64,000 bases of DNA from an uncultured Bacillales bacterium (GCA_946412015.1 CAMKGA010000004.1:3858-67857); one strand, 5' to 3'. Positions 41,686 to 60,450 are shown, numbered from the stretch's first letter. The notes: generated by a model not told the origin, from the sequence alone. Made by a program: numbers and translations.

Positions 41686-41982
41686 ATGGCAAATATAGTT
41701 ATTGATGCAGGACATGGAGGTACTGATTCTGGTGCTGTTGGAAATGGTATTATCGAAAAAGATTTAACACTTAAAATATCTAAATATATGGCTGATAGAT
41801 TAAAGCAACTTGGAGCTAATGTTACTTTGACAAGAGATACTGATGAAACATTAACACCCGATGAAAGGGTAAAAAGAGTATTAAATGCATATGGTAACAA
41901 TAAAGATGTTTTAGTTATTTCTAATCACATAAATGCTGGAGGTCCTGATACAAGTAATTATGAATGGTTAAATTTAATATAA
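41686..41982 (+). pseudogene. N-acetylmuramoyl-L-alanine amidase (Amidase_3, CwlD/endolysin-like) N-terminal fragment only
   Basis: MANIVIDAGHGGTDSGAVG...LVISNHINAGG is the first ~85 aa of Amidase_3. The ORF then diverges and stops (98 aa versus ~180-aa domain), so it is truncated at ~41945. Confidence 0.55.
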
Positions 41983-42064
41983 TAAATATCTAATAATGAA
42001 ACAATTAAAATTGTTTGAGATAAAGAACAAGAAAAAAATTGTAATGAGAAAGAGGTGATTGATT

Positions 42065-42613
42065 ATGGATTTAAAAATAATATATTATGTACATGGTACA
42101 ACATTTGATAATGCATCTAAAAAATGTAGTGGTTGGAAACAAGTAGAATTGAATGATTTAGGAAAAGAACAAGCAATTAATTTAGGAAAAAATACACCAT
42201 ATAAATTCGATGTATTATTTACATCAGACTTGATAAGAGCAAAGGAATCGGCAAAATTAGCTTTTCCAAAGTTTCAAGTAATTGAAGACAAAAGGCTTAG
42301 AGAATGTAATTATGGAGATTTAGATGGTGAAGATAAAAATCAAATTATATATGAAGACCATATAAATAATCCATTTCCAAACGGAGAATCTTTAAAAGAT
42401 GTAGAAAAAAGACTTAGAGATTTTTTTAAGTATGTAAAAGAAAATTACAAAGATAAAACTATAGGAATTATAGCTCATAGAGCCCCTCAATTAGCAATCG
42501 AGGTTATTACAAAGAATATATCTTGGGAAGAAGCTAATGCTAATGATTGGAGAAAAACAGGTGCTTGGCAGCCAGGTTGGGAATATTGTTTAAAAAAATC
42601 TGATTTATTTTAA
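42065..42613 (+). CDS. histidine phosphatase family protein (phosphoglycerate mutase-like)
   Basis: The start (IYYVHGTTFDNASKKCSGW) and the overall histidine-phosphatase (branch 1) pattern; ATG 42065 with RBS agaggtga. Confidence 0.65.
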   Translation: MDLKIIYYVHGTTFDNASKKCSGWKQVELNDLGKEQAINLGKNTPYKFDVLFTSDLIRAKESAKLAFPKFQVIEDKRLRECNYGDLDGEDKNQIIYEDHINNPFPNGESLKDVEKRLRDFFKYVKENYKDKTIGIIAHRAPQLAIEVITKNISWEEANANDWRKTGAWQPGWEYCLKKSDLF

Positions 42614-44263
42614 GAAATTTTTTCCTTTTCTCCCGTATGGGTTACGAACTCTATTATCTTTATATTTAAAAGTATGGTTATCTAGAATATTGTATTTAAG
42701 TTTAATAATTATATTTCTATCTTTGTCTGCTTCAATTCTTTCTATTAGAGCAAATAATAAATTTTTATTAGGGTTGTTTAAGTTTAACAACTTTTTTATT
42801 TTGTCTTCATAGTTTAGATATTTATCAGTATTATCTTTTTCATTTTGAATTTCATTATTAATATCTTCTAAAATATTATTTAAATCTTTTAATTTATCTT
42901 CATATGGCTTTGATAATATTTTATATTGATTAGGCGTAATATTACCTTCTAAACGGTCTTTATATATAGTTTGAATAGTGTCTAATAATTTGTTTTGTTC
43001 TTTAATAATACCTTCTTTTCTTTTTTTATAATCGTTAGAATTATTCTTAGTTCTTTTAATAACTTCTTCATTTAATTCTTTTATGTTTAAATTAAGAAAT
43101 AATTTAGATAGTATTTTTTTTAGTTCTTTTAAAACTAATTCTTCAAAATAATCATATGAAAAAAAGTGCGATGTGCATAATTTTCTAACTGGGTCTCTAG
43201 CATACTTATTACAATTAATACACCAGTAGTCTTGCTTTTTTCTATAAAGTACACTAAGTCTATTTCCACATTCATGACAAAATAATAATCCTTCTAATAA
43301 TCTTTCAGGTCTTTTTCTTTTAGAATAAGATCTATTTTTATTATTTGTTTTTTTATTAATTAACATAAATGTATTTTTGTCTACTAATGCTTCATGTGTA
43401 CCTTCAACAATTATCCATAATCTTTTATCTAAAGTAATTCTTTTTTTCGATTTATAATTTATATTTGTCTGAGTACGTTGTACCATGTCACCAGTATACA
43501 TTCTGTTTTGTAATATATTATGAATTGAATGTATTGTCCATTTATTATTATTTTTATTTCGATTAGAAATAGGCAAGTTTTTATAATCTGCAGGAGTTGG
43601 TGCACCCATATTAGTTAATTTAGTTGCTATTTCACTAATTTTTATGTTATTTGCTCTTAGTTCAAATATTATTTTTACATATTTAGCTACTTGAGGATCA
43701 GGTATCAAATGTCCTTTATCATTTGGGTCTCTCATATATCCATAACAAGGTTTGCTACCTATAAATTTACCATCTTTTCGTTTTAAATCTAATACATTTC
43801 TAATTTTTAATGAGTTTTGTTTACTATAGTAATCATTGCACGCAATTATAAATGTTGATGAATCGTTACTAGCTTGATCCTTTATGCTATCGTAATTTTC
43901 TACAATCGATATAAATCTTACTTTGTTTTCTGGGAAATACTTTTCAATGTAATATCCTGTCATTACATGGTCTCTACCTAATCTTGATAAATCTTTTACA
44001 ATAACTAAATTAATTGTTTTGTTTTTTATATCTTCTATCATTTTATTAAATCCAGGTCTATTGAAATTAGTGCCAGAATACCCATCATCTATATATTCTT
44101 TAATTAATTTAAAGCTGTTCTTTTTACAGTAAGTACGCAGTATATTTTTTTGATTTATTACGCTTTCACTATCTAATTCGTGCTTCTTGTCTTTATCTTC
44201 TTGTGATAATCTTATATAAATACCAGCGTTATAATCTGAGTCTAGTAAGCAGCTATAATTCAT
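42605..44263 (-). CDS. large serine recombinase (TnpX/TndX/SpoIVCA-like)
   Basis: N-terminal resolvase catalytic domain YNAGIYIRLSQED...DDGYSGTNFNRPGF...VIVKDLSRLGRD, recombinase domain, and a C-terminal zinc-ribbon (CHECG...C) with coiled-coil, ~550 aa. Confidence 0.9.
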   Translation of the reverse strand: MNYSCLLDSDYNAGIYIRLSQEDKDKKHELDSESVINQKNILRTYCKKNSFKLIKEYIDDGYSGTNFNRPGFNKMIEDIKNKTINLVIVKDLSRLGRDHVMTGYYIEKYFPENKVRFISIVENYDSIKDQASNDSSTFIIACNDYYSKQNSLKIRNVLDLKRKDGKFIGSKPCYGYMRDPNDKGHLIPDPQVAKYVKIIFELRANNIKISEIATKLTNMGAPTPADYKNLPISNRNKNNNKWTIHSIHNILQNRMYTGDMVQRTQTNINYKSKKRITLDKRLWIIVEGTHEALVDKNTFMLINKKTNNKNRSYSKRKRPERLLEGLLFCHECGNRLSVLYRKKQDYWCINCNKYARDPVRKLCTSHFFSYDYFEELVLKELKKILSKLFLNLNIKELNEEVIKRTKNNSNDYKKRKEGIIKEQNKLLDTIQTIYKDRLEGNITPNQYKILSKPYEDKLKDLNNILEDINNEIQNEKDNTDKYLNYEDKIKKLLNLNNPNKNLLFALIERIEADKDRNIIIKLKYNILDNHTFKYKDNRVRNPYGRKGKNFLK

Positions 44264-44540
44264 ATTTATTACCTTCCTTATCATACTATCTTTTAGTAAT
44301 TAATTCTTTTATCAAATAGTTAATAATGATTTCAGTAAATAATTTTTCCTTATTTTTATTCATATTTTAATTTATGATTTATATTTTTATATTATTCTTT
44401 TTTCTTCATAATTGGTCTATATTTACACAACTACAGTTTGTCTAAAAATGTTGTTTTTTATATAGATTTATGGTATACTCGAATAGTAAAGTAGTAAATC
44501 ATAAAAAACCTTTACGATGTATCATAAAGGAGGTGGAAAA

Positions 44541-45089
44541 ATGAAAGGGGATAAGAAAATTCTAGTAGCTGCCATTTTAGTTTTACTATTAGCAGTATGC
44601 TTTGGAACATATGCTATTTATAGAGCAACTGGAAATGCAACTGGTAGTATTAAAGCTGCAACTTGGTCTGTTAAAGTAAAAGATACTGATATTGCTTCAA
44701 CAAACTATACTTTTGGTGCGGATGATATTACTTGGACTACATTAACTGGTTATAATCATACAATCGCACCAGGATCAGAAGGATATATTGAAATTCCTGT
44801 TGATGCTACTGGATCTGAAGTAGATGTAGTTCTTACTGCAACATTAGGTTCAACTAATCTTCCAAATGGAATGACTGCAACTCTTGCTAGTGGTAGCGAT
44901 TCACAAACAATTGCTTATTCTGAAACTGAAGGTGCAATGAAAAAAAAGGTAAGAATTAATATTGCATGGGCTGGAGCTGAATCAGATACTGCAGAAAAAG
45001 ATGGTACTGACTTAGCAGCTAAAGGTACAACTTTAAGTATTCCAGTAACATTAACTGCTAAACAATCATTAACTCATCATAATCCATAA
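44541..45089 (+). CDS. TasA/camelysin-like secreted fibre protein with SipW-cognate-type signal peptide
   Basis: N-terminal KKILVAAILVLLLAVCFGTYAIYRATGN resembles SipW-cognate signals (…GGTYAYF…). Thr/Ser-rich beta-type body; encoded in an operon with sipW. Confidence 0.5.
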   Translation: MKGDKKILVAAILVLLLAVCFGTYAIYRATGNATGSIKAATWSVKVKDTDIASTNYTFGADDITWTTLTGYNHTIAPGSEGYIEIPVDATGSEVDVVLTATLGSTNLPNGMTATLASGSDSQTIAYSETEGAMKKKVRINIAWAGAESDTAEKDGTDLAAKGTTLSIPVTLTAKQSLTHHNP

Positions 45090-45194
45090 GAGCAGTAAAA
45101 ATAAGAAAAGAATAATACATATTATTCTTTTGTTTAAAGTTTATAAGTAATTGTAGATTTTAACCAGAAGAATAATTTTTAGGAAGTGAAACAA

Positions 45195-46412
45195 ATGTCT
45201 AAACAAGAAAAAAATAATGATAGTAATATAATAAATAGAGTAATTCAAGTGATATTAATAATTATAATTATTATTTTGTTATTACATAACTGTTCTTTAA
45301 TTAAGAAGAAAAATGGTAAGGGGAATACTATTGATATAAAATGTGATGATGGTAAGTGCAGTAAAGATGATAAAATGATAGATTGTTTGTACGATGATGA
45401 AAATAGTAAATGCTTAGTTCCTAATTTTGTAGGGAAAAGTAAAAAAGATGTTTTAAAATGGCTTAGTTTATTATCAAATAATATTGATGTTGAGTTTAAA
45501 CTAGTAGAAAATCCTAATTATAAAGATGTAGTTGTTTTAGAACAATCAATTGTAGGAAAAAGTGTTAAAGAACTAATTAAAGGTAGAAAAAAAAATGTAA
45601 TTACAATTGTAAATAATGGTTCACTTGTAGATTGTAATAAAGATAGTCAAAATGATAAATGTACATTACCAAATTTTATAGATAAGAAAATAAGCAATGT
45701 AGAAAAATGGCTTGATAGTATTGCAAATAATGTAAAAATAAAATATGTTTATGTTGATTCTGATAAAATGGCAGGAACAATTGTTAATCAATCTATAAAA
45801 GGTGGCGCACCTATTAAAGAACTCATAAATAGTGACGAGGTAATAATTATTTATATTTCTAAAGGAAGTAAAAATAATAAATCTAATAACAGTAATAATA
45901 GCAATCAAGGTAGTAGTAATATACCGGAATCTAATCCAAGTTCAGATTCTGAAACAGAACCAGAGTTAGAAGATGACTTTTATGTTAGTGATAATGATAA
46001 AGTAAAATGGCATGATGACGTGAATTTAAATGTTTTTGAAGATTCATTGAAGATATCTAAAGTTAACGGAAAAATTGCTCCTGAAAGTACTGGAACTTAT
46101 AAATTCACGGTTAATAATGGAACTAAATATAATTTAAAATATAAAATTTCCTTTAATGAAGAAAATGAATATAATATGAATATAAAATATAAACTAAAAA
46201 AAGGAAATACATATTTAGTAGATGAATATGTTTCATATAATCAATTAAGTATAAATAATATGACATTAAACAGTACTAAGTCTGAGACATATTATTTGGA
46301 ATGGAAATGGGTTGGAGATAACGATTTAAATGATACTGCTATTGGTAATAGTGCTAAAAATAGTGATATTAAATATAGTTTAAAAATAAATGTAGAGGCA
46401 GAGAGTATATAA
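45195..46412 (+). CDS. membrane-anchored protein with two PASTA-like domains and C-terminal domain of unknown function
   Basis: N-terminal TM; two ~65-aa units (LVPNFVGKSKKDVLKWL...VLEQSIVGKSVKEL...VNNG and LPNFIDKKISNVEKWL...VNQSIKGGAPIKEL...SKG) fit the PASTA pattern. Confidence 0.4.
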   Translation: MSKQEKNNDSNIINRVIQVILIIIIIILLLHNCSLIKKKNGKGNTIDIKCDDGKCSKDDKMIDCLYDDENSKCLVPNFVGKSKKDVLKWLSLLSNNIDVEFKLVENPNYKDVVVLEQSIVGKSVKELIKGRKKNVITIVNNGSLVDCNKDSQNDKCTLPNFIDKKISNVEKWLDSIANNVKIKYVYVDSDKMAGTIVNQSIKGGAPIKELINSDEVIIIYISKGSKNNKSNNSNNSNQGSSNIPESNPSSDSETEPELEDDFYVSDNDKVKWHDDVNLNVFEDSLKISKVNGKIAPESTGTYKFTVNNGTKYNLKYKISFNEENEYNMNIKYKLKKGNTYLVDEYVSYNQLSINNMTLNSTKSETYYLEWKWVGDNDLNDTAIGNSAKNSDIKYSLKINVEAESI

Positions 46413-46861
46413 TGAATAAAGTATTTAAAATAATATTTGATGTTATATTTATTATTTCTATTATTATATTAGGACTATATTTTTTATTAAGATTATTAAA
46501 GATAGCTGAAATATATGAAGTTAAAACAGGCTCTATGGAAGATGATATTCATGTTGGTGATTATATATTAATTATAAAAAAAAGTGACTATAAAGTAAGA
46601 GATGTAGTTACATATGAAAAAGATGGATACTATGTTACTCATAGAATTATAAAGAAAAATAAAAATAAAGTTATTACTAAAGGTGATGCTAATAACGTTG
46701 CAGATGAAGAGATAAAAGTATCTAGTATAGTCGGAAAAGTAATATATCATGGAGGAATATTAAATTTCTTAATAAACTTTAAATATTTTATAGTTTGTGG
46801 ATTATTAGGATTATATTTATTAAGTACATTTTTTAATAAAAAGATAAAAGAACAGGAGTAA
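46412..46861 (+). CDS. sipW: signal peptidase I, SipW type (S26B, ER/archaeal-like)
   Basis: VKTGSMEDDIHVGDYILI...VTHRI...VITKGDANNVADEE...GKV matches SipW-type peptidases; N- and C-terminal TM. Confidence 0.75.
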   Translation: MNKVFKIIFDVIFIISIIILGLYFLLRLLKIAEIYEVKTGSMEDDIHVGDYILIIKKSDYKVRDVVTYEKDGYYVTHRIIKKNKNKVITKGDANNVADEEIKVSSIVGKVIYHGGILNFLINFKYFIVCGLLGLYLLSTFFNKKIKEQE

Positions 46862-46883
46862 AAAAAGTGAAAGGAGTATTGAT

Positions 46884-47360
46884 ATGAAAAATAAGATAAT
46901 AAAATCAATGTTATTGATTGTAGGAATATCACTTGTTTTTTATGCAGTACATACTTTTGCTTTAATGAGAGCTAGCGGTTCTGTTAATGGCTCAATTAAT
47001 ACATCTACATGGAGTGTAACAAGAAATCATAGTCAGAGTGGAGATTCAATAAATGTATATAAGGGTGGAGCTACAGATAGTTATACATTAACAGTTCAAA
47101 GTAATTCGCAAGTTGATGTTTTATATAAAATTATTATTAGTAATTTACCCTCTGGTGTTGAAGTAGATATTGATAATACCGGTTATCTAACTCCAACGGC
47201 TAGTGGAACTTTAACAATAGAAAATGCCAATACTGTTATAAATTATGGCGATTCGACAAAAACAAAAACGCATATTTTAACATTTAGAGCTACTAATGGC
47301 GCACAATTGGTAACAAATCAAAAAATAGATATTGATGTAGAATTTAGACAAGGGATTTAA
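46884..47360 (+). CDS. TasA/camelysin-like secreted protein, second paralog
   Basis: N-terminal TM plus ALMRASGSVNGSINTSTWSV, similar to the 44541 protein (…TGNATGSIKAATWSV). Confidence 0.5.
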   Translation: MKNKIIKSMLLIVGISLVFYAVHTFALMRASGSVNGSINTSTWSVTRNHSQSGDSINVYKGGATDSYTLTVQSNSQVDVLYKIIISNLPSGVEVDIDNTGYLTPTASGTLTIENANTVINYGDSTKTKTHILTFRATNGAQLVTNQKIDIDVEFRQGI

Positions 47361-47393: not shown

Positions 47394-50300
47394 ATGAAAT
47401 TAAAGAAGCATAAAAAAATTTTGATTCTTTTTGCTTTTGTTGTTGCTTTCTATGCCATTGTTAGTGGGACTTTTTCTATTTATAGAGAAAAAAAAGGGGA
47501 TAAGATTGATTTAAGTATTTTGGATGCTTCTGGAATGGTTACAGTAAATTTTAAGGCTAATGGTGGAGTAATTGATTCTGAAGATGAGACAAAAACTGTT
47601 CAATCAGGTACGACTATTGGACAATTACCAGAAGCAACAAGAGATGATTATAATTTTGATGGATGGTATACTGAACCAACGGGTGGAGAAAAAATTGATG
47701 AGAATACTGTGGTAACGGGAACAACTGTTGATTATTATGCACATTGGATTAAAATAGTATGTAAAAAGGCCGTAACTGGTACATTACACAGTGAAACTTG
47801 TGCTCAAGGTGGAGCGTGTTCAGGATCTGGCGGTGGTTATCACGCTAATGATACTATCTATTATGGAACAATTCCAAGTTCTATTAGCCCTATTGTCGGA
47901 GATGCTTATGATTGTGATGTAAACGATGATGATACATGGGATCCTCAGACTGAAAGATTTTATTATGTTAGACATTATGGGACAACAGATGAATTTGAAA
48001 ATTCTGTATTGGTTCATTATACAAGTTTTGATGATTTAGGGCAAATGGATTCATCTCCTTCAAGAACCAATTATTTATACGGAGATGCTAGTGATTATTT
48101 ACCTACATCTGCAACTTGGGATAATCCAGCTCTTATTGAAATGAATGGTAATATTACTAGATTTATTGCACGAGAGGATTTAGCTGCAGCTTGTGGTTCT
48201 GAATCAGGAGGAAATAAATTTGAAAATTGCCGCTTCTATTTAGAAAATAGTAGGTATCAATCTAGTAGTTTAGGTAGAGCAGGTATATGGTTAGCTGCCG
48301 AAGGAAATACACATTATAGAATTCATACAGAACAACTATCTGTTTCAGTTGCTGATACAGATAGTAAAAATACAGTTAGACCAACTATTCAAATTCCGTC
48401 TAATAGAATAGAAGATTTTAACAAGAAGAAAAAATATACTATAAATCTTGATTCTCAGGATGGAATGCCAAGCGAGTATTCTTTTGAGAAATGGGAAGGT
48501 GAAAGATTAGACACACTTCCAATCCCAACAAAATTTGGTTATATTTTTTCTGGATGGTATACAGACAATGAAGATTATACAACTGAAATTACACAAAATA
48601 CTATTGTAACAGGTAATATTAATGGATATGCTAAATGGGTACCTAAACAAGTGCCATTAGATTATGTATTCTATATACCAGGAGAGTGTTCTTTTACATC
48701 AACAGGTATTGTAAATGGTGAAAATGGAGATTGTATTAGTACAATTAATCCAACAGGATCAAATATTGATTATACAGGAAGTTCTTTATCTTCAAAAAAA
48801 TACATAGATACTCAAGTAGGTTTATATAATTCAATAAATCACGATAAAGATTTTGAAGTGGGATTTACTATCGTAAGTTATAATTCAGCTGATAATATAA
48901 ATAGAGCAACATTAGTTCATTCAAAAGCAGAAATAGTAAATAGATATCCAGGATTTACGTTTAGAAAAAAAGATGCTACAAATAATTTTTTACTACAGTC
49001 TAGAGAAACACAAAGTAGTAATGCTGAGTATATAATTGCATCCTCATCTGTACAAAATGTAAAAATATATAGAATAAGTAATTCTATTTACTATAGTATA
49101 AATGATGGTGAAAAAACTAAATTAAATGATTTAAATCAATACAATCCAGTTTTTGATTTAACAACTTGGTTTGGTGGTGCTCCAAAAGATGAATCAGCAC
49201 TTGTTGCGGATAGATTATTTATAGGTACATTAAGTAATATGTATATCAAACTATCTCCAACAGCAAAAGTAACATTTGATCCTAATTATACTGGAGAACC
49301 ATCATTTGAACAAGATGCTAATGTTGGTAAAAAAATTGGTGATTTACCAACAATTACTAGACCGGGATATGCATTTATTGGTTGGTATACCGATCCAGTT
49401 AATGGTTCTAAGATTAACTCAAATACTATAATTGATGGAGATATTAGATTTTATGCTCATTGGACTGATGGTGCTACAGTAACACTTCATGCAAATGGTG
49501 GAAGTGTAAGTCCAAATACAATAACAGTTTATCATGGACATGAAGTAGGAAATCTTCCGACACCAGAGAGAACAGGATATACTTTTGATGGTTGGTATCA
49601 AGATGTGAATCTTACAATTCCTGCTACATCAGAAACAGTAATAAATCAAAATACAGATTTCTACGCAAAATGGATTGAAAATGTTACTATTACATTTGAT
49701 GCTGATGGTGGAGAAGTAAGTCCAACTAGTAAAACACAAGCTTCTGGACTTGCAATTGGAGATTTGCCAATACCATCAAAAATAGGTTATGACTTTGTAG
49801 GTTGGTATACCGATAATACATATACAACAGAAGTAACTTCTTCGACAGTGTTTAATACAACAACAACAATTATTGCAAAATGGGAAGAATTAGATGATAT
49901 AACTGTTAATTTTGATGCAGATGGAGGAAGTGTAAGTCCAACTAGTGTTACATTCCCACCTGGATCAGCAATAGGTGAATTACCAATTCCGGAAAAAACA
50001 GGATATAATTTTGTAGGTTGGTATACGGATAATACATATACAACAGAAGTAACATCTTCTACAACATTTAATACAACAACAACAATTATTGCAAGGTGGG
50101 TAGATGAGCAATATGTAGCTTGTGTAGGATTGAATTGTTATCTAACATTAGATGAAGCTATAGCTGCGGTACCAACTACTAAAGTAAAAACTAAAGTTAA
50201 AATCTTAAAAGATATTACGACTACAGATACTATAAATATAACAAGTAGCAAATGGGTTGAATTAGATATTGGAAATAATACTATTAGTGCTACTAGCGGA

Positions 50301-53114
50301 ACGTTCTCTTTGTTTACAAATACAGGTAAATTAGATATTATTAATGGTAAATTATATAGTTCAGGTGGATATATTATTGAAAATAAATCTACTGCAACTG
50401 TAAATATTTATGATGGAGAGCTAACTTATAATAAATCAAGTGATGGTGAGAAAAAAGTAATTGAAATTAAAGGTGGAACAGTTAATATTTACGGTGGAAC
50501 ACTTTCTTGTAACTCTAAAGCTGCAGTAATTAATGTTAATGCAGGAGCGTCATTAAATGTATATGGTGGAAAAATTAAGGGTACTAATACATTTAAAGGA
50601 CAAGCAGTTTATAACAATGGTGGAATAGTAACAATAAGTGGAACAGCTTATTTAGAGAATAACTCTCAGACTGGTACTGCAAATGGTAGAGCAGCTCTTC
50701 ATAATAATGCTGGAACAATTAATATACTTGGTGGAACAATTATAAGTAATAATAATTCAGCTGTAAAAAATAGTGATACAATGACAATTGGTACTAATGA
50801 TGATCCAATAGATAATACAAACCCAGTTATGCAAGGCTATAATTATGGTTTAGAAATAGCTAGTGGGAAAACAGTAACAGTTTACGATGGTATTTTCAAA
50901 GGTAATGTAAATACTAATAATAAAGCAATTAATGATGAATCAGGCGTAATTGTTAATAATGCAACAATTGTTCATACCAATGAAACAATAGATAATATTC
51001 AATATGATGTAGCTTATCTAGAAGATATTTCAGTTAATATTACAGTAAACTTTAATAAAAATGGTGGGGATACGGTTGAGTATAATTCAAAAACATTAAC
51101 TGAAATAGGTCCTATTGGAAACCTGCCTACTGCAACTAAAGCTAATTCAGAATTCTTAGGTTGGTTTACTGCAGGAGTTGGTGGAGAAAGAGTACTTTCA
51201 ACAACAGAAGTTGATGATGATGTTACTTATTTCGCACATTATACAAACACAAAAACAGTATGTAGACCAGCGACTGTTCTACATTCATCTGGATCAACAG
51301 AATTTGGACAAATTCCAAGTAGTCCATCATTAAGTGCTGGAGACGCTTTTGATTGTGATGTTAATGGTGACGGCACATATGATGCAACAAATGAAAGATT
51401 TTATTATTTAAATAAAACAAGTGATGGCAAAGCAGTATTAATATTCTATAATAATACATCACAAGTTAATAATAATGTATCTCCAGTTTGTAGTGCAACT
51501 GCTGTTAGTTATGCTCCTACATTTACAGAAGGTCCAAATACAGCTATTTCTGAGCTTCCTACGATAGCTCAGTGGCCAAATGTAAGTTTATATACAGAGC
51601 CAAGAACTATCACAGATGAGTCTGGAAATACTGTTTTAAGTAATTATGTATATAGTGGTTCAGCTGCAAGATTTGCAACTCTTGATGAGATTAAAGCAGC
51701 AACTAATTCTAATTTAAATGAAACTGCAAATGAGTTAGAAGATTACACATTCTTACTTGAAAATACAATTTCATATGGAAGCGATTGTAGATCAAATTAT
51801 TGGTTAGAAACAGTTAATTCAAATGGTGGAGCTGAAAGAATTAATGGTGCTGTTACTGCTAAGAGTCTTGGCCATGCTTCTGGTAATTCAGGAGTAAGAC
51901 CTGTAATCGAAGTCCCATTTGATTCAATTGAAGGAGCAATAAATATTGTTGAATTTGATACAATTCCAGAAGCAATGAGAACATATTTTAACAATGTTAA
52001 TTCATGGAATACTGGACAGGATGATACAAATTATAGTAGTTTTAATGATGCTATGACAGCAAATCTTAATAATTATGATTGTGCATATTATAAAAATGAT
52101 AATGTTACAACACAATATGGTAGTGTCTATTGTGATCAGCCAAATAAGTATAATACAGGTATTACAGGTAATATTAATGTATATGAATATAACGAGTTAA
52201 CAGGATTAAGATCAAATAATACAGTAAACTATGTATTTAATGATAATGGTAAGCTATATAATTTTATTCCTGGTAAAACATATTATTGGGAATCAGCTAG
52301 TGATAATACTAAAAAAGGTTTTGTAAGACCTACTGGTGAAAGACGACTTATTACTATTCCTGGTGTTAATAGACAGACGCGTAATGTAAGAGATTTAGGT
52401 GGCCTTCCTGTTGATACAAATGGTGATGGTGTTATTGATGGAAAACTTAAATATCAAAAGCTATATCGTGGTGAAAAAATTTGGGGATTAAATAATGATG
52501 GTACAACAAGAGCACAATTTGAAAAGTTAGGTATTTATAATGAATATGACCTTCGAACTCCAGGTTCAGATATTGTTATATCAGAAGAAGATAAATTGGC
52601 AAATTATAATCAAAACGAAATAGTTCATTATAAGATTGATCATACTGAATTTGGATCTCCTGCAACAGAAACACGTTTCAATGGTAAAAGTTATTATCAG
52701 TTATCTAGAGATGCTGCAATAGATGTAATGAAAAAAGTAGTAGCTGGTAATGATGATTATTCTATTTATTTACATTGTCGTATAGGAGCTGATAGAACAG
52801 GTACTCTTGCTTATTTATTAGAAGGTGTTTTAGGAGTGCCAACGGAATATAGATATCAAGATTATGAATTAACAACTTTCTTCGGATTAAGAGAAAGAAC
52901 AAGGTATTATTATATGAAAGATTCTACTAATGATATGTATAAATTCATATATTTAAAAAAAGCAATTCGTCATGCAACTTTAGGAAATGATGAGATTACT
53001 GGAGAAGAAAATGTAATTGATTGGTTCTTATTAGAAGGTAATTCCACAAGTGAATGTAGTGATATAACTGCACTAATAAATCAATTTAGAGCTAAGATGA
53101 TTGACTATAATTAA
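47394..53114 (+). CDS. giant (1906 aa) surface/secreted protein: SipW-type signal, Listeria-Bacteroides (Flg_new) repeats, parallel beta-helix, duplicated VRPVI modules, C-terminal CX5R tyrosine-phosphatase-like domain
   Basis: N-terminal FAFVVAFYAIVSGTFSIY signal. Seven G[YF].F.GW[YF]T..........W repeats, Gly-rich GG..IYGG beta-helix repeats, and a C-terminal HCRIGADRTG (CX5R P-loop). Two ~220-aa modules end in ..YW..G....VRP[VT]I..P. Confidence 0.7.
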   Translation: MKLKKHKKILILFAFVVAFYAIVSGTFSIYREKKGDKIDLSILDASGMVTVNFKANGGVIDSEDETKTVQSGTTIGQLPEATRDDYNFDGWYTEPTGGEKIDENTVVTGTTVDYYAHWIKIVCKKAVTGTLHSETCAQGGACSGSGGGYHANDTIYYGTIPSSISPIVGDAYDCDVNDDDTWDPQTERFYYVRHYGTTDEFENSVLVHYTSFDDLGQMDSSPSRTNYLYGDASDYLPTSATWDNPALIEMNGNITRFIAREDLAAACGSESGGNKFENCRFYLENSRYQSSSLGRAGIWLAAEGNTHYRIHTEQLSVSVADTDSKNTVRPTIQIPSNRIEDFNKKKKYTINLDSQDGMPSEYSFEKWEGERLDTLPIPTKFGYIFSGWYTDNEDYTTEITQNTIVTGNINGYAKWVPKQVPLDYVFYIPGECSFTSTGIVNGENGDCISTINPTGSNIDYTGSSLSSKKYIDTQVGLYNSINHDKDFEVGFTIVSYNSADNINRATLVHSKAEIVNRYPGFTFRKKDATNNFLLQSRETQSSNAEYIIASSSVQNVKIYRISNSIYYSINDGEKTKLNDLNQYNPVFDLTTWFGGAPKDESALVADRLFIGTLSNMYIKLSPTAKVTFDPNYTGEPSFEQDANVGKKIGDLPTITRPGYAFIGWYTDPVNGSKINSNTIIDGDIRFYAHWTDGATVTLHANGGSVSPNTITVYHGHEVGNLPTPERTGYTFDGWYQDVNLTIPATSETVINQNTDFYAKWIENVTITFDADGGEVSPTSKTQASGLAIGDLPIPSKIGYDFVGWYTDNTYTTEVTSSTVFNTTTTIIAKWEELDDITVNFDADGGSVSPTSVTFPPGSAIGELPIPEKTGYNFVGWYTDNTYTTEVTSSTTFNTTTTIIARWVDEQYVACVGLNCYLTLDEAIAAVPTTKVKTKVKILKDITTTDTINITSSKWVELDIGNNTISATSGTFSLFTNTGKLDIINGKLYSSGGYIIENKSTATVNIYDGELTYNKSSDGEKKVIEIKGGTVNIYGGTLSCNSKAAVINVNAGASLNVYGGKIKGTNTFKGQAVYNNGGIVTISGTAYLENNSQTGTANGRAALHNNAGTINILGGTIISNNNSAVKNSDTMTIGTNDDPIDNTNPVMQGYNYGLEIASGKTVTVYDGIFKGNVNTNNKAINDESGVIVNNATIVHTNETIDNIQYDVAYLEDISVNITVNFNKNGGDTVEYNSKTLTEIGPIGNLPTATKANSEFLGWFTAGVGGERVLSTTEVDDDVTYFAHYTNTKTVCRPATVLHSSGSTEFGQIPSSPSLSAGDAFDCDVNGDGTYDATNERFYYLNKTSDGKAVLIFYNNTSQVNNNVSPVCSATAVSYAPTFTEGPNTAISELPTIAQWPNVSLYTEPRTITDESGNTVLSNYVYSGSAARFATLDEIKAATNSNLNETANELEDYTFLLENTISYGSDCRSNYWLETVNSNGGAERINGAVTAKSLGHASGNSGVRPVIEVPFDSIEGAINIVEFDTIPEAMRTYFNNVNSWNTGQDDTNYSSFNDAMTANLNNYDCAYYKNDNVTTQYGSVYCDQPNKYNTGITGNINVYEYNELTGLRSNNTVNYVFNDNGKLYNFIPGKTYYWESASDNTKKGFVRPTGERRLITIPGVNRQTRNVRDLGGLPVDTNGDGVIDGKLKYQKLYRGEKIWGLNNDGTTRAQFEKLGIYNEYDLRTPGSDIVISEEDKLANYNQNEIVHYKIDHTEFGSPATETRFNGKSYYQLSRDAAIDVMKKVVAGNDDYSIYLHCRIGADRTGTLAYLLEGVLGVPTEYRYQDYELTTFFGLRERTRYYYMKDSTNDMYKFIYLKKAIRHATLGNDEITGEENVIDWFLLEGNSTSECSDITALINQFRAKMIDYN
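49684..50103 (+). repeat. tandem near-identical duplication of a 216-bp (72-codon) Flg_new repeat unit inside the giant gene
   Basis: 49800..49878 and 50016..50094 are ~92% identical at DNA level (ggttggtataccgataatacatatacaacagaagtaac...); the flanking parts of the units are also similar. Confidence 0.6.
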
Positions 53115-53204: not shown

Positions 53205-53660
53205 GTGATTAGAGTGGAAACGAAGCAAAGAAAAATTAAATTAAAAAGCATAATTATATTATTAAGTATAGTTTTAATAATTGGAGTTGTGTTAGTATTT
53301 ATATTGAAAAAAAATAATACAATAGATGATGGTCTTAAACACAATAATAATAAAAGTTTTGTACAAAAGCAAAAGGTAAAGGGGATTATTTTTAAAAATA
53401 TAAAATGTACTTATGATGGTAAAAATTCATTGATTAGTTATACTATGGTTAATAAAACGAAAAATAAAATATATTTAAACAATTATGATGTAATAGTAAA
53501 GGATAAAAATAAAGTTAAACTTGTTAGAATAGCTGCTCACGTTACACAAACTCTATCGCCTGATGAACCAGTAGATATGGCTAATCAAGTAGTAGGAGTA
53601 GACTTAACAAATGCTCATTATATGGAATTAAAATTGAATACCAAAAAGAAGGATAAGTAA
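53205..53660 (+). CDS. small membrane-anchored hypothetical protein
   Basis: N-terminal TM (SIIILLSIVLIIGVVLVFIL); no recognised domain. Confidence 0.3.
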   Translation: MIRVETKQRKIKLKSIIILLSIVLIIGVVLVFILKKNNTIDDGLKHNNNKSFVQKQKVKGIIFKNIKCTYDGKNSLISYTMVNKTKNKIYLNNYDVIVKDKNKVKLVRIAAHVTQTLSPDEPVDMANQVVGVDLTNAHYMELKLNTKKKDK

Positions 53661-53821
53661 TATGAGATTACTTATTTTTTTAATAAATATATAAATAGTA
53701 ATATATTTTATAATATAATTTATTTATAATATCTTCTATCGTGAGGTGGCGACAGTCATTGTGTAACAAATATTAAGTATAACAATTAAAGCCTAAATAT
53801 GATAAGAAAAGAGGAAATGCT

Positions 53822-54172
53822 ATGAATATTAGTTACATTAAACAAGGGGATTATTTATTACCTGATTTAATACTAAAAGAGAAAGTTCAATATAATATAG
53901 GAAAATATGGATTATTAAGATTAGAGTATATAAAAAAATATAAACTTGGATTATATTTTGATTTACTTGTTAATGATAATTTAAATGAATATCTTCAAGA
54001 TATAGACACTACTGTTATGGAGAAGGTGCAAAGTTTAATTAAAGAACTTGATGAAAAAGAAAATATAAATGAAAAATTAAAACAAGATAATCAAATACTT
54101 TGGGTAAGTAAAATGAATAATATTAAAAATATAGCAGAAGAAATAATTCTAAAGGAGTATATCTATGTGTGA
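53822..54172 (+). CDS. TnpV-like protein (Tn4451/Tn5397-type mobile element accessory protein)
   Basis: 116 aa; length and blocks (…EYIKKYKLGLYFDLL…NQILWVSKMNNIKNIAEEII) resemble what I recall of TnpV. This was not verified by search. Confidence 0.35.
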   Translation: MNISYIKQGDYLLPDLILKEKVQYNIGKYGLLRLEYIKKYKLGLYFDLLVNDNLNEYLQDIDTTVMEKVQSLIKELDEKENINEKLKQDNQILWVSKMNNIKNIAEEIILKEYIYV

Positions 54173-54464
54173 TATTACCGATAAAGAATTTGAAAGAATA
54201 TACTTACCAGTATGTATTAATTATGATAACTATCTAAAAGAATTTGTAATACCCGATGTAGTAGCTTTTTATATAGCAGATAATTTTTATAAGAAAGTAC
54301 TTTCTAAAGCACCACTTTATAATCATATTAATTCAGCAATAGATATTTTTAACGTAAGATGTGATATAGATAAATTAATACCATCTATAAAAAAGATATT
54401 AAAAATAAAATATAATTTAAGGATAGTAAAAGATAATCCATTAATATTAAAGAAATTTTATTAA
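54165..54464 (+). CDS. hypothetical protein (99 aa)
   Basis: ORF overlapping the tnpV-like stop by 8 nt. Confidence 0.2.
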   Translation: MCDITDKEFERIYLPVCINYDNYLKEFVIPDVVAFYIADNFYKKVLSKAPLYNHINSAIDIFNVRCDIDKLIPSIKKILKIKYNLRIVKDNPLILKKFY

Positions 54465-54696
54465 AAAGAAGAACTCTATCAAATTTAAACGATAGAGTTT
54501 TTAAGTTCAATTATTATTTTAGGAGTTATGTTATTGTCTAGCCAGCACTTAATTTGTACTCTCGTACGAAATTCTTTCGTGGGATTACTCCCAAACCCTA
54601 TTTTAAAAATTTGTAAGTATTTCAATGTCAAAATTAAAAATTTGTCGAATTATATGTTATAATAATATTGATTTGAAACTTTAGGAGTGAGAGAGT

Positions 54697-55353
54697 ATGA
54701 AAGAAAAATGTGGAGTAATTTATATATTAACTAATCCATCATTTCCAGAGTATATCAAAATTGGATATGCTGACGATGTTGAAGCAAGAGTAAAACAATT
54801 AAATAATTCTGAGGCTGTTCCTTTTTCATTTCATATTTATGCAACATTTGATGTAACTGAGAGATTAACTGATATAAAATTACACAAGTTTATAGATACT
54901 ATAAATCCAGAACTTAGAAGTAAAGAAAAAATAGGAGATAAAATTAGAGTCAGAGAATTTTATCATATGAGCCCAGAAGAAATGTATTCTGCATTTGAAA
55001 GTATGGCTGAAATAAATGGAACAACTAATAGACTTCATTTATGGAAGGAAACAAATGAAGAAATAGAAGATAGGAAAGAAGCATTATTATTATCAAAAAA
55101 TAGACATCATTTTAAAAATATAAATTTTCATTCAAGTTTAACAGGAAAAGATTATTATTCTAAAACAAATGAAGATGGAACTTTGGGTATATATGAAAAA
55201 GATACAGATAATGAAGTTCCTAATAATTCAAATCCCTCAAAACGTCAAATCTTATATTCAGCACTTGAAGATTTAGGTGGAGATGTATCTAGTGGAAATA
55301 CTTTATATCAATTAGAGCATAAATTAGAGAAAATTTTAGTTAGTAGGAAGTGA
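54697..55353 (+). CDS. T5orf172 / GIY-YIG superfamily domain protein
   Basis: GVIYILTNPSFPEYIKIGYADDVEARVKQLNNSEAVPF matches the T5orf172 (MUG113-like GIY-YIG) consensus. RBS ggagtgagag. Confidence 0.6.
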   Translation: MKEKCGVIYILTNPSFPEYIKIGYADDVEARVKQLNNSEAVPFSFHIYATFDVTERLTDIKLHKFIDTINPELRSKEKIGDKIRVREFYHMSPEEMYSAFESMAEINGTTNRLHLWKETNEEIEDRKEALLLSKNRHHFKNINFHSSLTGKDYYSKTNEDGTLGIYEKDTDNEVPNNSNPSKRQILYSALEDLGGDVSSGNTLYQLEHKLEKILVSRK

Positions 55354-55357
55354 TTAT

Positions 55358-56488
55358 ATGTCAAAGAATCATCAGTTAACAAACGCAAAAAAAAATAAAG
55401 ACGATGAGTTTTATACTGAATATTCAGATATTCAAAAAGAAATAAATGCCTATATAGAATATAATCAAGATGTTTTCAAAGATAAAACAATATTACTACC
55501 ATGTGATGATCCAGAGTGGTCAAATTTTACAAAGTTTTTTGCTCAAAACTTTGAAAGATTTGGATTAAAAAAATTAATAAGTACGAGTTATGCTAATGAT
55601 AAAAAGAATGATATATATATTCAATTATCATTATTTGAATCAGAGTCACCTAAATTTGATAAGAATAAGACTAATTCACATGGGAAAATATTTACATTAG
55701 ATAGAGATACAAATAAATCAGGTAGAATTGATATAAATGATTTAGAATGGGACTATCTAAAAGGAGATGGAGATTTTAGATCTGACGAAGTGAAAAAATT
55801 AAGAGATGAAGCTGATATAATAGTTACTAATCCACCTTTTAGTCTATTTAGAGAATTTATTGATTGGATTTTTGAGGGTAAAAAAGATTTTATAATATTA
55901 GGAAATGAAAATAATGAAACGGATAAAGATATCTTTACTTTAATTAGAGAATCAAAGATGTGGCTTGGTAAATCTAATGGTGAAATGGCTTTTAAAGTTC
56001 CAAAAACATCAGAAAAAAGAGATACAAGATTTTGGATAGATGAGACTGGTCAAAAATGGCGAAGTTTTGGAAATATGTGCTGGTTTACCAATCTTGATTT
56101 AGGAAGAAGACATCAACCACTGAGATTAATGAATATGGCTGATAATTTGAAATATAATAAACCATTAATAAAAACATTAAGTGAGAAGTATAATGTTGAT
56201 TTCTATCCTGAATTTGATAATTATGATGTGATAGAAGTTCCAAGATATGATGCAATTCCTTATGATTATAACAAACCAATGGCTGTTCCAATTACTTTTT
56301 TAAAGTATCATGACCCACATCAATTTAAAATTTTAAATGCAAATGATTTTAGAAAAAATAATTCCATTCCGATTAAAGCACATGGATTGATAAAAGATAA
56401 GGAAAGCACTATAAATGGGAAGGCAACATATGTTAGAGTTGTAATTATAAGTAGAGGTGAAGAATATGAAAACAATATTGAAAACTGA
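55358..56488 (+). CDS. EcoRI-methylase-family N6-adenine DNA methyltransferase
   Basis: N-terminus …NAKKNKDDEFYTEYSDIQKEI… matches what I recall of the M.EcoRI N-terminus (…KAKKSKSDEFYTQY…); catalytic TNPPFS (NPPF) motif at ~aa 157. Confidence 0.65.
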   Translation: MSKNHQLTNAKKNKDDEFYTEYSDIQKEINAYIEYNQDVFKDKTILLPCDDPEWSNFTKFFAQNFERFGLKKLISTSYANDKKNDIYIQLSLFESESPKFDKNKTNSHGKIFTLDRDTNKSGRIDINDLEWDYLKGDGDFRSDEVKKLRDEADIIVTNPPFSLFREFIDWIFEGKKDFIILGNENNETDKDIFTLIRESKMWLGKSNGEMAFKVPKTSEKRDTRFWIDETGQKWRSFGNMCWFTNLDLGRRHQPLRLMNMADNLKYNKPLIKTLSEKYNVDFYPEFDNYDVIEVPRYDAIPYDYNKPMAVPITFLKYHDPHQFKILNANDFRKNNSIPIKAHGLIKDKESTINGKATYVRVVIISRGEEYENNIEN

Positions 56489-57629
56489 TTTAACTGTTAG
56501 AGATATAAATGAAGGATTTGTTTATAATGAGTATGAAGGTAAAGGTTTATTTGGTTGGGGTGGAAAATTAACTATTCAACCAGAATATCAAAGGAATTAT
56601 ATTTATGCTGATGGGAAAAGAGATGTTGCAGTAATTGACTCATTATTAAAAGGATATCCTTTAGGTTTGTTATATTTTGTTAAAGTTGGGGAAGATAAAT
56701 ATGAGATATTAGATGGACAACAAAGAGTTACTAGCTTCGGAAGATTTATTACGGATAAATTTGCTATTAAGGATGAACATGGCATGGAGCAATATTTTGA
56801 TGGTTTTGCCAAGAATTTACAAGATAAAATTTTAGATTCTCAATTAACAATTTATATTTGTGAAGGTGAAGAATCAGAAATTAAAGAATGGTTTAAAACG
56901 ATTAATATTGTAGGTGTTCCACTTAATAATCAAGAATTATTAAATGCAATTTATTCAGGACCATTTGTAACTATGGCTCGTGAAGAATTCTCTAATTCTC
57001 AAAATGCAAATATTCAAAAATGGAGTGCATATATAAAGGGTGATGTAAATAGACAAGAGTATCTTGCAACAGCACTTAATTGGGTAAGTAAAGGGAATGT
57101 TGATAGTTATATGAGTCAACACAGATTTGATACTAATATTACAGAATTAAAATCATATTTTAACTCTGTAATAACTTGGGCATCAACTGTATTTAAAGAT
57201 GTTAAATCTGATATGAGGGGCTTAGAATGGGGAAGATTATATGAAATGTATCATAATAATTCATATGATCCTAACAAAGTTTCAGAAATACTATGTAAAT
57301 TATATGCTGACCCTCAAGTACAAGATACTAAGGGTATATGCGAGTATATATTGGGTGGATGTAAAGATACTAAATTATTAAATATTAGAGTATTTGATGA
57401 TAATACAAAGCGAGTTGTATATGAAAAACAAACTCAAGAAGCAAAATTAAAAGATATTAGTAATTGTCCATTATGTGCAATGGGAAATGACAATAATAAA
57501 AATAGAATTTGGGAATTAAAAGAGATGGATGCAGATCATGTAACAGCATGGAGCAAAGGCGGCTCTACTGATATTGATAATTGCCAGATGCTATGTCAAA
57601 CACATAATCGAGCAAAAGGAAATAAATAG
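56466..57629 (+). CDS. DUF262 (ParB/GmrS-like, DGQQR) + C-terminal HNH nuclease protein
   Basis: ILDGQQRVTSF is the DUF262 signature. The C-terminus CPLC...DADHVTAWSKGG...NCQMLCQTHNRAKGN is an HNH motif. Its start overlaps the MTase stop by 23 nt, which indicates translational coupling. Confidence 0.7.
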   Translation: MKTILKTDLTVRDINEGFVYNEYEGKGLFGWGGKLTIQPEYQRNYIYADGKRDVAVIDSLLKGYPLGLLYFVKVGEDKYEILDGQQRVTSFGRFITDKFAIKDEHGMEQYFDGFAKNLQDKILDSQLTIYICEGEESEIKEWFKTINIVGVPLNNQELLNAIYSGPFVTMAREEFSNSQNANIQKWSAYIKGDVNRQEYLATALNWVSKGNVDSYMSQHRFDTNITELKSYFNSVITWASTVFKDVKSDMRGLEWGRLYEMYHNNSYDPNKVSEILCKLYADPQVQDTKGICEYILGGCKDTKLLNIRVFDDNTKRVVYEKQTQEAKLKDISNCPLCAMGNDNNKNRIWELKEMDADHVTAWSKGGSTDIDNCQMLCQTHNRAKGNK

Positions 57630-57704
57630 TATTAAAGCGCTAGTACAGGCTTAAATATATTTAAGTTTTTGTATTGCGCTTTTTATGTAGTGGGAGGTAA
57701 TTAT

Positions 57705-59834: not shown

Positions 59835-59985
59835 TTAGGTTCTATGAGAGTACAGTTTTTACTCCTTTTTTCTTTTTTGTAGAATATCTTTTTATTTTTA
59901 TTTGATGTAAGATGAAAACACCTAGGAGAAGTAGTATGTAAAAGTGCACTTTTATAAAGATATATTTTATGTATGATTCTATAGA

Positions 59986-60450
59986 ATGGATACTATGGAA
60001 GAATTTATAAATCCAATTATACCAATATCGGTATTAAGTGATAGTAGAATATTATCTTTAGAAAAGTTATTATTACTACACATAATTTCTTTGTGTAAGA
60101 ATAAAGGATATTGTTGGCCTACTAATAGGTATTTTATGAATAAGGTTAATTGCACCAAGACAACAGTATCAAAGAGTATAAGTAGTTTATCAAAGTTTGG
60201 ATATATTGATATAGAAATTAATAATAGTGAAACAAATAATTCAAAGAGGATAATTAGACTATCCGAAGTGTTAAAGAAAAGAATAACAAGTATTCAAGGA
60301 AATATTAATACTAGTATTCAAAATAATTTTAACCATTATAATAAATATAATAAAAATAATAAAGATAAAATAGATAACATTTATTATGTTGATGATAATG
60401 GTATGAATACTGGCATGGTAAACCTACCCTATCAAAAGAAGCAACTATAG
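59986..60450 (+). CDS. HTH protein resembling replication-initiator N-terminal (RepA_N/DnaD-like) domain
   Basis: ISVLSDSRILSLEKLLLLHIISLCKNKGYCWPTNRYFMNKVNCTKTTVSKSISSLSKFGYI resembles the N-terminal segment of 22058..22723. Confidence 0.35.
   Translation: MDTMEEFINPIIPISVLSDSRILSLEKLLLLHIISLCKNKGYCWPTNRYFMNKVNCTKTTVSKSISSLSKFGYIDIEINNSETNNSKRIIRLSEVLKKRITSIQGNINTSIQNNFNHYNKYNKNNKDKIDNIYYVDDNGMNTGMVNLPYQKKQL

Follow-up and report, generated by a model that had tools for sequence, protein, structure and literature searches.

The stretch of DNA analysed here, called the window throughout, comprises 64,000 nucleotides (nt) of an uncultured Bacillales bacterium (GCA_946412015.1 CAMKGA010000004.1:3858-67857), has a G+C content of ~25% and carries nearly all of its genes on the + strand. 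Between positions 44541 and 53660 it harbors six co-oriented + strand genes in the order A-B-SPase-C-D-E, encoding two small secreted proteins (A and C), a PASTA-repeat membrane protein (B), a signal peptidase (SPase), a giant surface protein (D) and a small membrane protein (E), and this cassette is proposed below to direct a surface assembly that is independent of sortase and relies on the peptidase encoded with it. The genes and their control regions are as follows:

44450 to 44540, + strand: promoter-like region, 5' leader and ribosome-binding site (RBS), conserved in 14 loci irrespective of the genes on either side
44541 to 45089, + strand: gene A, 182 amino acids (aa), counted from the ATG behind the strong RBS AAGGAGGTG
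45103 to 45163, + strand: double hairpin 3' of A, minimum free energy -10.3 kcal/mol, z = -3.2
45186 to 46412, + strand: gene B, 408 aa, or 405 aa if the ATG at 45195 is used
46412 to 46861, + strand: signal peptidase gene, 149 aa
46884 to 47360, + strand: gene C, 158 aa
47394 to 53114, + strand: gene D, 1,906 aa
53122 to 53155, + strand: intrinsic terminator after D, its stem and U-tract also present after D in most loci compared
53205 to 53660, + strand: gene E, 151 aa

Comparison with orthologues suggests that the true start of B is the ATG at 45195 rather than the one at 45186. A preliminary description of the locus had claimed four open reading frames (ORFs) between 44541 and 47360, all of which are present at their coordinates; however, it had the SipW gene flanked by two small proteins, while in the actual order A-B-SPase-C the flanking genes are B and C, and the extent it gave is right for those four genes but too short for a unit that really runs on through D and E. 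It had seen the signal-bearing proteins A and C, and had missed the giant, signal-sharing D as well as E. The genes are real and conserved, and their order is kept in 12 loci of a species-level genome collection and in the metagenome contigs fetched, which were chosen as encoding C homologues, wherever the contig is long enough. The carriers are uncultured metagenome-assembled genomes from rumen and gut, whose records are mostly titled Erysipelotrichaceae, Bacillales or Bacilli, two being titled Muribaculaceae; a Clostridium origin, to which the low G+C content might point, was rejected in view of these titles. The nearest contig, L001, is 98% identical to the window in DNA over 10 kb; by gene, identity is only 87% for A but 96-99% for B to E. 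The window sequence upstream of 44444 is replaced in L001 by a 325-aa ORF (3-980) that is transposase-like by reading alone. A tblastn search of C against 72,556 plasmids returned zero matches.

By its family score and its catalytic boxes, the enzyme of the cassette is a signal peptidase of the endoplasmic reticulum (ER)/archaeal, SipW type, as the preliminary description had it. It scores 72.1 bits on TIGR02228, the model for archaeal/ER-type signal peptidase I (cut-off 51.85), and falls below the Bacillus SipW equivalog NF046067 (35 vs 190 bits), hence it is to be regarded as a SipW-type enzyme and not as a SipW orthologue. Its closest solved relatives are human SEC11A/C, with which the Ser box (TGSMED), the His box (THRI) and the Asp box (KGDANNVAD) align (SGSMEP, HRV and KGDNNxVDD in SEC11A/C), so the catalytic set consists of Ser-His(-Asp) boxes and not of Ser-Lys. 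Hydropathy places membrane segments at the N- and C-terminal ends of the protein, and a look-up of the exact sequence found no record.

The N-termini of A, C and D share a basic start and a hydrophobic helix followed by GTYA/IYR in A, HTFA/LMR in C and GTFS/IYRE in D, the slash marking the presumed cut. This bears out the earlier remark on SipW-cognate-like N-termini, as T-aromatic-A/S and then x-aromatic occur in A and C as in the TasA family. The pattern [TAS][FYW][AS][ILKAM][YFM][RKNST] at the end of the N-terminal hydrophobic stretch, which was written to fit the motifs of A, C and D, was found in these three only of the 95 window ORFs of ≥60 aa, and it fits 115 of 117 proteins of the TasA family (TWAAFN) but not one of 120 from the B family. 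On sequence grounds, the shared motif is not due to chance. The SipW-cognate signal model TIGR04088, a search proposed in the preliminary description, gave zero matches among A, C, 12 A orthologues and 118 C-family members. Type IV pilin-like signals were considered and rejected, as the motif comes after the hydrophobic stretch and not before it. A short conserved β-strand lies ~8-16 residues past the presumed cut, namely AATWSVKV in A, STWSVTR in C and KIDLSIL in D. The shared motif, the co-location of the genes in every cassette with neighbours on its contig and the natural peptidase::C fusions described below together suggest that the peptidase would cleave the co-encoded A, C and D.

Gene A encodes a 182-aa and gene C a 158-aa secreted β-sandwich protein, each with its conserved N-terminal strand, and the two are clearly paralogous by profile comparison (HHalign probability 98.8%, E = 6e-17). 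A is a candidate major subunit and C a candidate adaptor. Among 5.8 billion proteins, C has 87 homologues of 51-99% identity, none of which is named; one of the 87 (P0057, a fragment on an 892-bp contig) has a single precomputed Pfam entry and the rest have none. The C family as a whole is unnamed and contains no fewer than 385 clusters (50% identity), whose typical motif is T[FL][AS]KY...G...[VI]AKW[DE]VS; in the part of it that was scanned, which leaves out hundreds of members, no protein reaches the gathering threshold of a Pfam or NCBIfam model. A has no Pfam, NCBIfam or PDB match; against Pfam and NCBIfam, the proteins A, C and E and the C-terminal domain of B yielded sub-threshold Ig-like noise only (DUF11, FixG_C, BACOVA_00961-like and DUF4402), of which the weak DUF11 and FixG_C matches suggest that the C family is a generic Ig-like sandwich. 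PDB sequence searches with the C-family profile, the A-family profile, A and D returned nothing meaningful. The AlphaFold model of C (predicted local distance difference test, pLDDT, 79) shows the signal helix followed by a plain nine-strand β-sandwich, its N-terminal strand being modelled less confidently than the core. In a Foldseek search of this model against PDB, the top neighbours were CBM2/chitin-binding domains and chaperone-usher pilins at E = 2e-3 or weaker, with nothing at 1e-3 or better, and the donor-strand pilins FimG, CfaB and SafA as well as the TasA fibre were among the weak fold neighbours.

The small proteins had been described as TasA/camelysin-like, which the family tests do not uphold. 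The camelysin/TasA family PF12389 matched neither A nor C at E ≤ 0.1, nor A or the 118 C-family members at E ≤ 1, while all 120 TasA homologues listed in a control search carry it. Against an alignment of 110 TasA sequences, HHalign gave A 7.9-13.7% and, with an enlarged A alignment, up to 45% (E = 2e-4) in an equivalent register (GTYAIYR with GTWAAFN, AAxWSVKV with AGTLDLxV, IAPGS with KPGD); the aligned stretch includes the signal peptide, so that this score is inflated. The same comparison gave ≤2% for C and 0.1-0.2% for the C-terminal domain of B. No curated SipW-cognate NCBIfam/TIGRFAM family, the BsaA type included, matched A, C, the 12 A orthologues or the 118 C-family members, and the TapA N-terminal model TIGR04087 produced sub-threshold matches in 6 of those 118 (best E = 0.015). 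The closest structural neighbour of C is not a TasA-type jelly-roll: the TasA fibre ranks 29th by Foldseek (E = 0.022, TM-score 0.33/0.25). With the family tests negative or weak, the likeness of A and C to TasA, as judged from these comparisons, is one of layout (signal motif, N-terminal strand, sandwich and dedicated peptidase) and not of demonstrable family membership.

Gene B encodes a short basic tail, one membrane helix, a Cys-rich spacer, two PASTA repeats (residues ~65-228), a disordered Asn/Pro/Ser-rich linker of ~55 residues (229-283) and a highly conserved C-terminal β-sandwich (~263-408). The earlier reading of a membrane-anchored 408-aa protein with two PASTA-like repeats agrees with Pfam, the internal repeat, AlphaFold and Foldseek alike. 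The PF03793 search it had proposed gave E = 2.6e-9 and 37.3 bits, above the gathering score of 23.2; the two repeats share 35% identity (E = 5e-14); and the structure prediction shows PASTA folds, with two α+3-β units at pLDDT ~90 whose Foldseek matches are the PASTA domains of PknB, Stk1 and StkP (3m9g, 5e12, 5nod). B carries neither a kinase nor a transpeptidase/penicillin-binding protein (PBP) domain, and the kinase-type model NF033483 was matched in the PASTA portion only (24 vs 450 bits). The C-terminal domain aligns with the A family by HHalign (80%, E = 1.4e-5), with KIAPESxGTYKFxVNN opposite TIAPGSEGYIEIPVDA and YYLEWKWVGDND opposite VRINIAWAGAESD, and is probably an A-type module. PASTA repeats are present in all 120 listed of the 247 B homologues, and absent from the B-like proteins of the deeper cassettes L003, L021, L023, L028 and L029, which keep the membrane helix and the C-terminal module, so that the PASTA pair is specific to a lineage and was inserted into an anchor protein of older date. 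B is thus a candidate wall anchor or nucleator, and from what is known of the PASTA family its repeats may bind peptidoglycan.

In D, the signal and the short strand KIDLSIL are directly followed by the first of seven Flg_new repeats, past which lie regions without a family and a C-terminal Y_phosphatase3 domain. This domain (residues ~1661-1836; window 52680-53114) retains an intact HCX5R motif (HCRIGADRT at 1794) and is kept in every full-length D orthologue with Pfam matches listed; an extracellular phosphatase of the protein tyrosine phosphatase type could act on host or plant phospho-compounds. D also contains an internal duplication of ~300 residues at ~30% identity (residues ~120-340 and ~1185-1514; window 47700-48400 and 50950-51930) with the motif CxxAxxxxLH...YGxIP...GDAYDCDVNxDG...ERFYY, to which no Pfam family matched. 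An LPXTG motif, a C-terminal membrane segment and a wall-binding repeat are all absent from D; sortase anchoring was therefore rejected for want of LPXTG and, as D has no anchor of its own, it would be shed after cleavage if there were no partner to retain it. E, a type II membrane protein of 151 aa, ends in a small domain at its C-terminus, has no Pfam or NCBIfam family match and is present in every close cassette that extends far enough; that it might be a homologue of A, B or C was rejected, as HHalign shows no relationship.

The cassette has control regions of its own. The 14 loci in which the promoter-like region and leader are conserved are the window, L001, L003, L006, L012-L017, L019, L020, L024 and L026; within the window, an extended -10 element TGGTATACT lies at 44471-44479, and an invariant leader stem is formed by GTAAAG (44486-44491) and CTTTAC (44510-44515). 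An alternative pairing of CCTTTA (44509-14) with TAAAGG (44525-30) would cover the RBS, and the leader could be a translational control element. The first of the two hairpins between A and B has an AU stem of 11 bp with a U-rich tract behind it, and the same stem occurs after A in the loci compared, which makes the structure a candidate attenuator; its stem AAAGAAUAAU/AUUAUUCUUU is nearly constant between loci, while the loop varies. Rfam matched neither the leader nor the A-B spacer. Promoter and leader, hairpin and terminator together make A, attenuator, B-SPase-C-D, terminator and E the likely layout of transcription.

Natural fusions link the parts of the cassette to each other. The peptidase is fused to C in P0288, P0308 and P0331, and the C domain forms the N-terminal module of larger surface proteins in P0298, P0306 and P0325, the last being annotated as a BspA-type leucine-rich repeat (LRR) protein. 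Distant cassettes, which are flanked by housekeeping genes, keep a core of A-like, B-like, peptidase and C-like genes with the cargo swapped for Flg_new+DUF285 or for DUF285 fused to C. L028 encodes a peptidase, A-like, B-like, a peptidase, C-like and an Flg_new+DUF285 protein, L029 encodes A-like, B-like, a peptidase and C fused to DUF285, and L023 encodes B-like, a peptidase::C fusion and an Flg_new protein. The two SipW-type peptidase genes of L028 lie before the A-like gene (7499-8092) and before the C-like gene (9533-9982). Cargo proteins that are encoded separately always carry the same kind of signal and a short xIxLxI strand, which sits directly before the first Flg_new repeat.

It is proposed, with a probability of roughly one half, that the cassette encodes a surface assembly which needs no sortase but requires the cassette's own peptidase, B serving as wall anchor, A forming the shaft, C acting as adaptor and D being the exchangeable cargo at the distal end. 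A, C and D would be exported on SipW-cognate-type signals and cut by the ER-type peptidase of the cassette after T-aromatic-A/S, so that each mature N-terminus would bear its conserved short β-strand, and the freed strands would let the sandwich modules join in series by strand complementation. A would be the main, repeated shaft subunit, being promoter-proximal and followed by the attenuator-like hairpin; its paralogue C would be the adaptor linking the distal cargo; and D, with its signal and N-terminal strand ahead of adhesin-like and phosphatase domains, would be exchangeable cargo or a tip. B would stay in the membrane, where its PASTA repeats would hold the peptidoglycan and the disordered linker would carry the A-type module outward as base or nucleator, much as TapA serves TasA. 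This proposal draws on the conserved gene order, the cassette's own promoter and leader, the hairpin after A and the terminator after D; on the ER/archaeal-type peptidase and the signal motif in A, C and D only among window ORFs; on the relatedness of A, C and the B C-terminal domain, the peptidase::C and C::cargo fusions and the cargo-swapped distant cassettes; and on the PASTA folds of B and a D that has neither LPXTG nor a C-terminal anchor. The order of the parts in the assembly and polymerisation by strand complementation, the latter by analogy, are both what these data would suggest.

Several points weigh against it. Filament formation, cleavage and peptidoglycan binding are inferred, and the carriers are all uncultured. 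Strand complementation is argued from analogy and from the conserved strands, and the case for A as the major subunit consists of gene order and the hairpin. The strand of D, KIDLSIL, has no (A)xWxV motif as found in A and C, the C-terminal domain of B was modelled at moderate confidence (pLDDT ~50-86), and TasA homology of A and C is not established by PF12389, HHalign or Foldseek. No role is assigned to E, which is missing from the distant cassettes.

To our knowledge, few systems of sortase-independent fibres with a private signal peptidase are known, namely TasA, BsaA, the archaeal bundling pili (ABP) and tafi. In tapA-sipW-tasA of Bacillus subtilis, fibres form by donor-strand exchange, with strand complementation by TapA (PMC9674648, PMC10151520). 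The present cassette likewise is sortase-independent, has a dedicated ER-type signal peptidase gene in the operon and an accessory or anchor gene immediately upstream of it (TapA there, B here), and its signals end in T-aromatic-A before the cut and x-aromatic after it, with a conserved β-strand past the cleavage site. In contrast to TasA, PF12389 homology is not demonstrable for A and C, the subunits are about half the size and the model of C is all-β; in contrast to the tapA-sipW-tasA unit, there are two paralogous small subunits, an anchor that differs from TapA in its membrane helix and PASTA pair, a cargo of 1,906 aa with the same type of signal and a sixth gene, E. The earlier remark that the locus departs from the B. 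subtilis layout by carrying a PASTA membrane protein agrees with this. The haloarchaeal tafi system (tafA-G, Haloarcula hispanica) consists of the peptidase TafD, the major subunit TafA, the adaptor TafE, the anchor TafF and, at the tip, TafC, which has a large distal domain and a donor strand at its N-terminus (PMC11821415). The division of labour proposed here is the same by roles, and the proposed logic of the cassette is even closer to tafi than to tapA-sipW-tasA; however, tafi is archaeal, uses signals of the twin-arginine translocation (Tat) type and has no PASTA anchor, while the cargo here is far larger and has a phosphatase domain. In Clostridium perfringens sipW-bsaA, a terminator follows the major subunit gene (PMC7395162). 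Like sipW-bsaABCRSD, the cassette pairs a Firmicutes SipW-dependent peptidase system with a small secreted protein, a polymer being seen for BsaA and proposed here, and a terminator or attenuator follows the major subunit gene there and, as a candidate, here, with read-through into accessory genes; yet sipW comes first there, while A and B precede the peptidase gene here, and the cassette contains no two-component system. A and C have no family match with BsaA, and BsaA polymers are largely released, whereas a wall-binding anchor is encoded here. With PknB/StkP-type kinases and class B PBPs, B shares the PASTA fold and repeats, extracellular after a single membrane helix; unlike those, it has no kinase or transpeptidase, and its PASTA pair lies between the membrane helix and a fibre-subunit-like module. 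The cassette is built of undescribed families and would be a private-peptidase-dependent surface assembly of a known kind.

The surroundings of the cassette in the window comprise two recombinase-bearing elements and part of a split amidase gene:

41686 to 41982, + strand: N-terminal fragment of an Amidase_3-LysM gene, Pfam Amidase_3, profile positions 1-79 of 174 only
42059 to 42613, + strand: His_Phos_1 histidine-phosphatase gene between attL and the recombinase, missing in the L006-type element
42605 to 44284, - strand: Rec1, large serine recombinase with Resolvase, Recombinase and Zn_ribbon_recom domains
53700 to 53760, no strand assigned: right arm of the cassette element, ...TATAATATCTTCTATCGTG/AGGTGG (ATCGTG/AGGTGG), 53743-53748, from the alignment with the L006 and L012 attR
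53822 to 63271, + strand as far as 62299: second element in tandem, with TnpV, a 99-aa ORF, T5orf172, an EcoRI-type adenine methylase, a GmrSD_N+HNH nuclease, an AAA_13 ATPase, an HTH_36/DnaD_N protein, Rec2 and Bro-N
60680 to 62299, + strand: Rec2, second large serine recombinase, 49% identical to Rec1

The proximity to a serine recombinase that had been noted is accounted for by Rec1, on the minus strand and with all three recombinase domains. The junctions were compared in the window (41923-41960 and 53700-53760), L006 (5570-5600 and 16790-16815), L012 (4990-5020) and L026 (17445-17535). Amidase homology ends right after NHINAGG (41923-41943), and an intact 416-aa amidase orthologue aligns over its residues 5-89 only; the left junction attL lies at ~41938-41960, with the element-end sequence ACAAGTAATTAT common to the window and L006. 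The 3' end of Rec1 is ~650 bp from attL, with His_Phos_1 between them, while in L006 the recombinase abuts attL directly. A Rec1 orthologue, 80% identical, occupies the same position in L006-L010, where recombinase and cassette together form an 11.2-kb insert splitting the amidase gene; in L006, amidase residues 5-88 and 87-398 flank the insert with the shared core AGGTGC. Matches of the recombinase to phage records are all below 60% identity (~29-34% among those listed) and uninformative. Both amidase halves are recoverable in L006, whereas the 64-kb window holds the 5' half only, its right arm being joined to the second element and not to the amidase 3' part. As read from these junctions, the cassette here travels in an ~11.8 kb element bounded by serine recombinase sites and splitting an amidase gene, and the second element is a tandem integration with the amidase 3' part outside the window. 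Excision would give the repaired amidase junction AATGCTGGAGGTGCNGAAGG and the circle junction ...CTATCGTGAGGT..TGATACAAGTAATTAT. TnpV is shared with L001, whose restriction-modification cargo is different, D12 methylase, HinfI and Mrr replacing the defence genes.

The preliminary placing of the locus on mobile DNA holds for this lineage but not for its relatives, which have the cassette beside an intact amidase gene and no recombinase. In L003, L021 and L026/27, the cassette lies directly upstream of the intact gene, with the same chromosomal neighbours as in L006; in L012, the recombinase abuts the amidase 3' half and the cassette lies downstream; and in L024, insertion sequence (IS)-type genes flank the cassette on both sides. 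The cassette is therefore not intrinsically mobile. Four arrangements of cassette and amidase gene can be distinguished, the cassette lying within the split gene together with a recombinase, ahead of an intact gene where no recombinase is present, downstream of the 3' half with the recombinase on the other side, or with no amidase nearby; a single recombination history was sought for the four and none was found. The spacer between E and the amidase gene in L026 (17445-17535) is loosely like the right arm and ends at the amidase RBS AGGTGA, close to the att core AGGTGC. Like skin, SPbeta and Tn4451-TnpX elements, the insertion has a large serine recombinase at one end and interrupts a coding sequence precisely (at the HINAGG codons), its two halves adding up to an intact gene, and TnpV is found in the neighbouring element; unlike them, its cargo is a surface-structure cassette, its target is Amidase_3-LysM, and relatives keep an intact target without a recombinase. 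Elsewhere in the window, at 15838-16537, seven tRNA genes are clustered (Leu, Ser, Met, Asp, Phe, Arg, Pro) in a stretch whose G+C content is above that of its surroundings.

Other readings of the cassette have to be weighed against that of a polymeric assembly. The one that comes nearest to it, although we consider it rather unlikely, is that no polymer is made and that the cassette is a maturation and tethering system for D, with A and C as monomeric accessory or chaperone-like proteins and B, perhaps together with E, holding the complex. D is by far the largest product, its counterpart is the part that varies between cassettes and it has no known anchor; moreover, C is directly fused to cargo, so that a 1:1 adaptor would be enough, and there is no significant fold match to any fibre subunit. 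However, two paralogous sandwich proteins with N-terminal strands, plus an A-type module on B, exceed the needs of a 1:1 tether, the attenuator-like hairpin after A suggests that A is made in excess, and all characterised SipW-type cassettes make a polymer (PMC9674648, PMC7395162, PMC11821415). A and C might also be true, divergent TasA/camelysin (Peptidase_M73) members that form TasA-type biofilm fibres, given that the end-of-signal motif is of the identical kind, that the A family aligns in equivalent register (45%, E = 2e-4), that six C-family members weakly match TIGR04087 (best E = 0.015) and that the TasA fibre is among the fold neighbours of C. This is improbable in view of the missing PF12389 matches (up to E = 1 for A and the 118 C-family members, to 0.1 for C), the ≤2% for C vs TasA, the Foldseek rank of 29 (TM-score 0.33/0.25) and a C model without the TasA helices; mature C (~130 aa) and mature A (~155 aa) are also far smaller than mature TasA (~230 aa), and the signal peptide within the aligned stretch inflates the score of A.

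The mode of joining and the service rendered by the cassette could each be different still. A polymer held by covalent, intermolecular isopeptide bonds, as reported for C. perfringens BsaA, rather than by strand exchange, is very improbable: BsaA, a small SipW-dependent protein, does give extremely stable polymers (PMC7395162), intermolecular isopeptide bonds are named in the title of a preprint (10.1101/2024.11.04.621531) and Lys, Asn and Asp are abundant in both A and C, but no NCBIfam SipW-cognate family, the BsaA type included, is matched, and the conserved features are the N-terminal strands, with no obvious Lys/Asn/Asp triad. Just as far-fetched would be a cassette that is accessory cargo serving the mobile element, for example as an aggregation or adhesion factor aiding transfer, and not a chromosomal organelle. 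It lies inside a recombinase-bounded insertion in the window and in L006-L010, has IS-type genes on both sides in L024 and a TraG/type IV secretion system gene ~4 kb downstream in L006; on the other hand, the most divergent relatives have it at the same chromosomal site without a recombinase, it retains its own conserved promoter and leader, and distant cassettes lie among housekeeping genes.

Taken further, the assembly of B, A, C and D proposed here might tentatively be seen as an undescribed class of Gram-positive surface organelle, a view that we hold to be doubtful. It would be a sortase-independent, strand-complemented stalk built of a new pilin-like family (A, C and the B module), with its own ER-type peptidase, a PASTA root in the peptidoglycan and a swappable giant tip cargo (Flg_new/phosphatase or BspA-type LRR), in some lineages moving as an ~11-12 kb serine recombinase cassette that splits an amidase gene.

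If true, the proposed assembly would bring to the fibre systems with a private peptidase a protein family that is large and unnamed (no fewer than 385 clusters, 50% identity) and would show modular exchange of distal cargo between cassettes, and in it PASTA repeats would for the first time act as a structural anchor to the wall and not as the sensor of a kinase or PBP. The split amidase gene found here, as opposed to the intact gene beside the cassette in relatives, raises the question whether excision switches both functions. The carriers are abundant uncultured Bacilli of rumen and gut, where adhesion to plant fibre, host mucus and partner cells matters.

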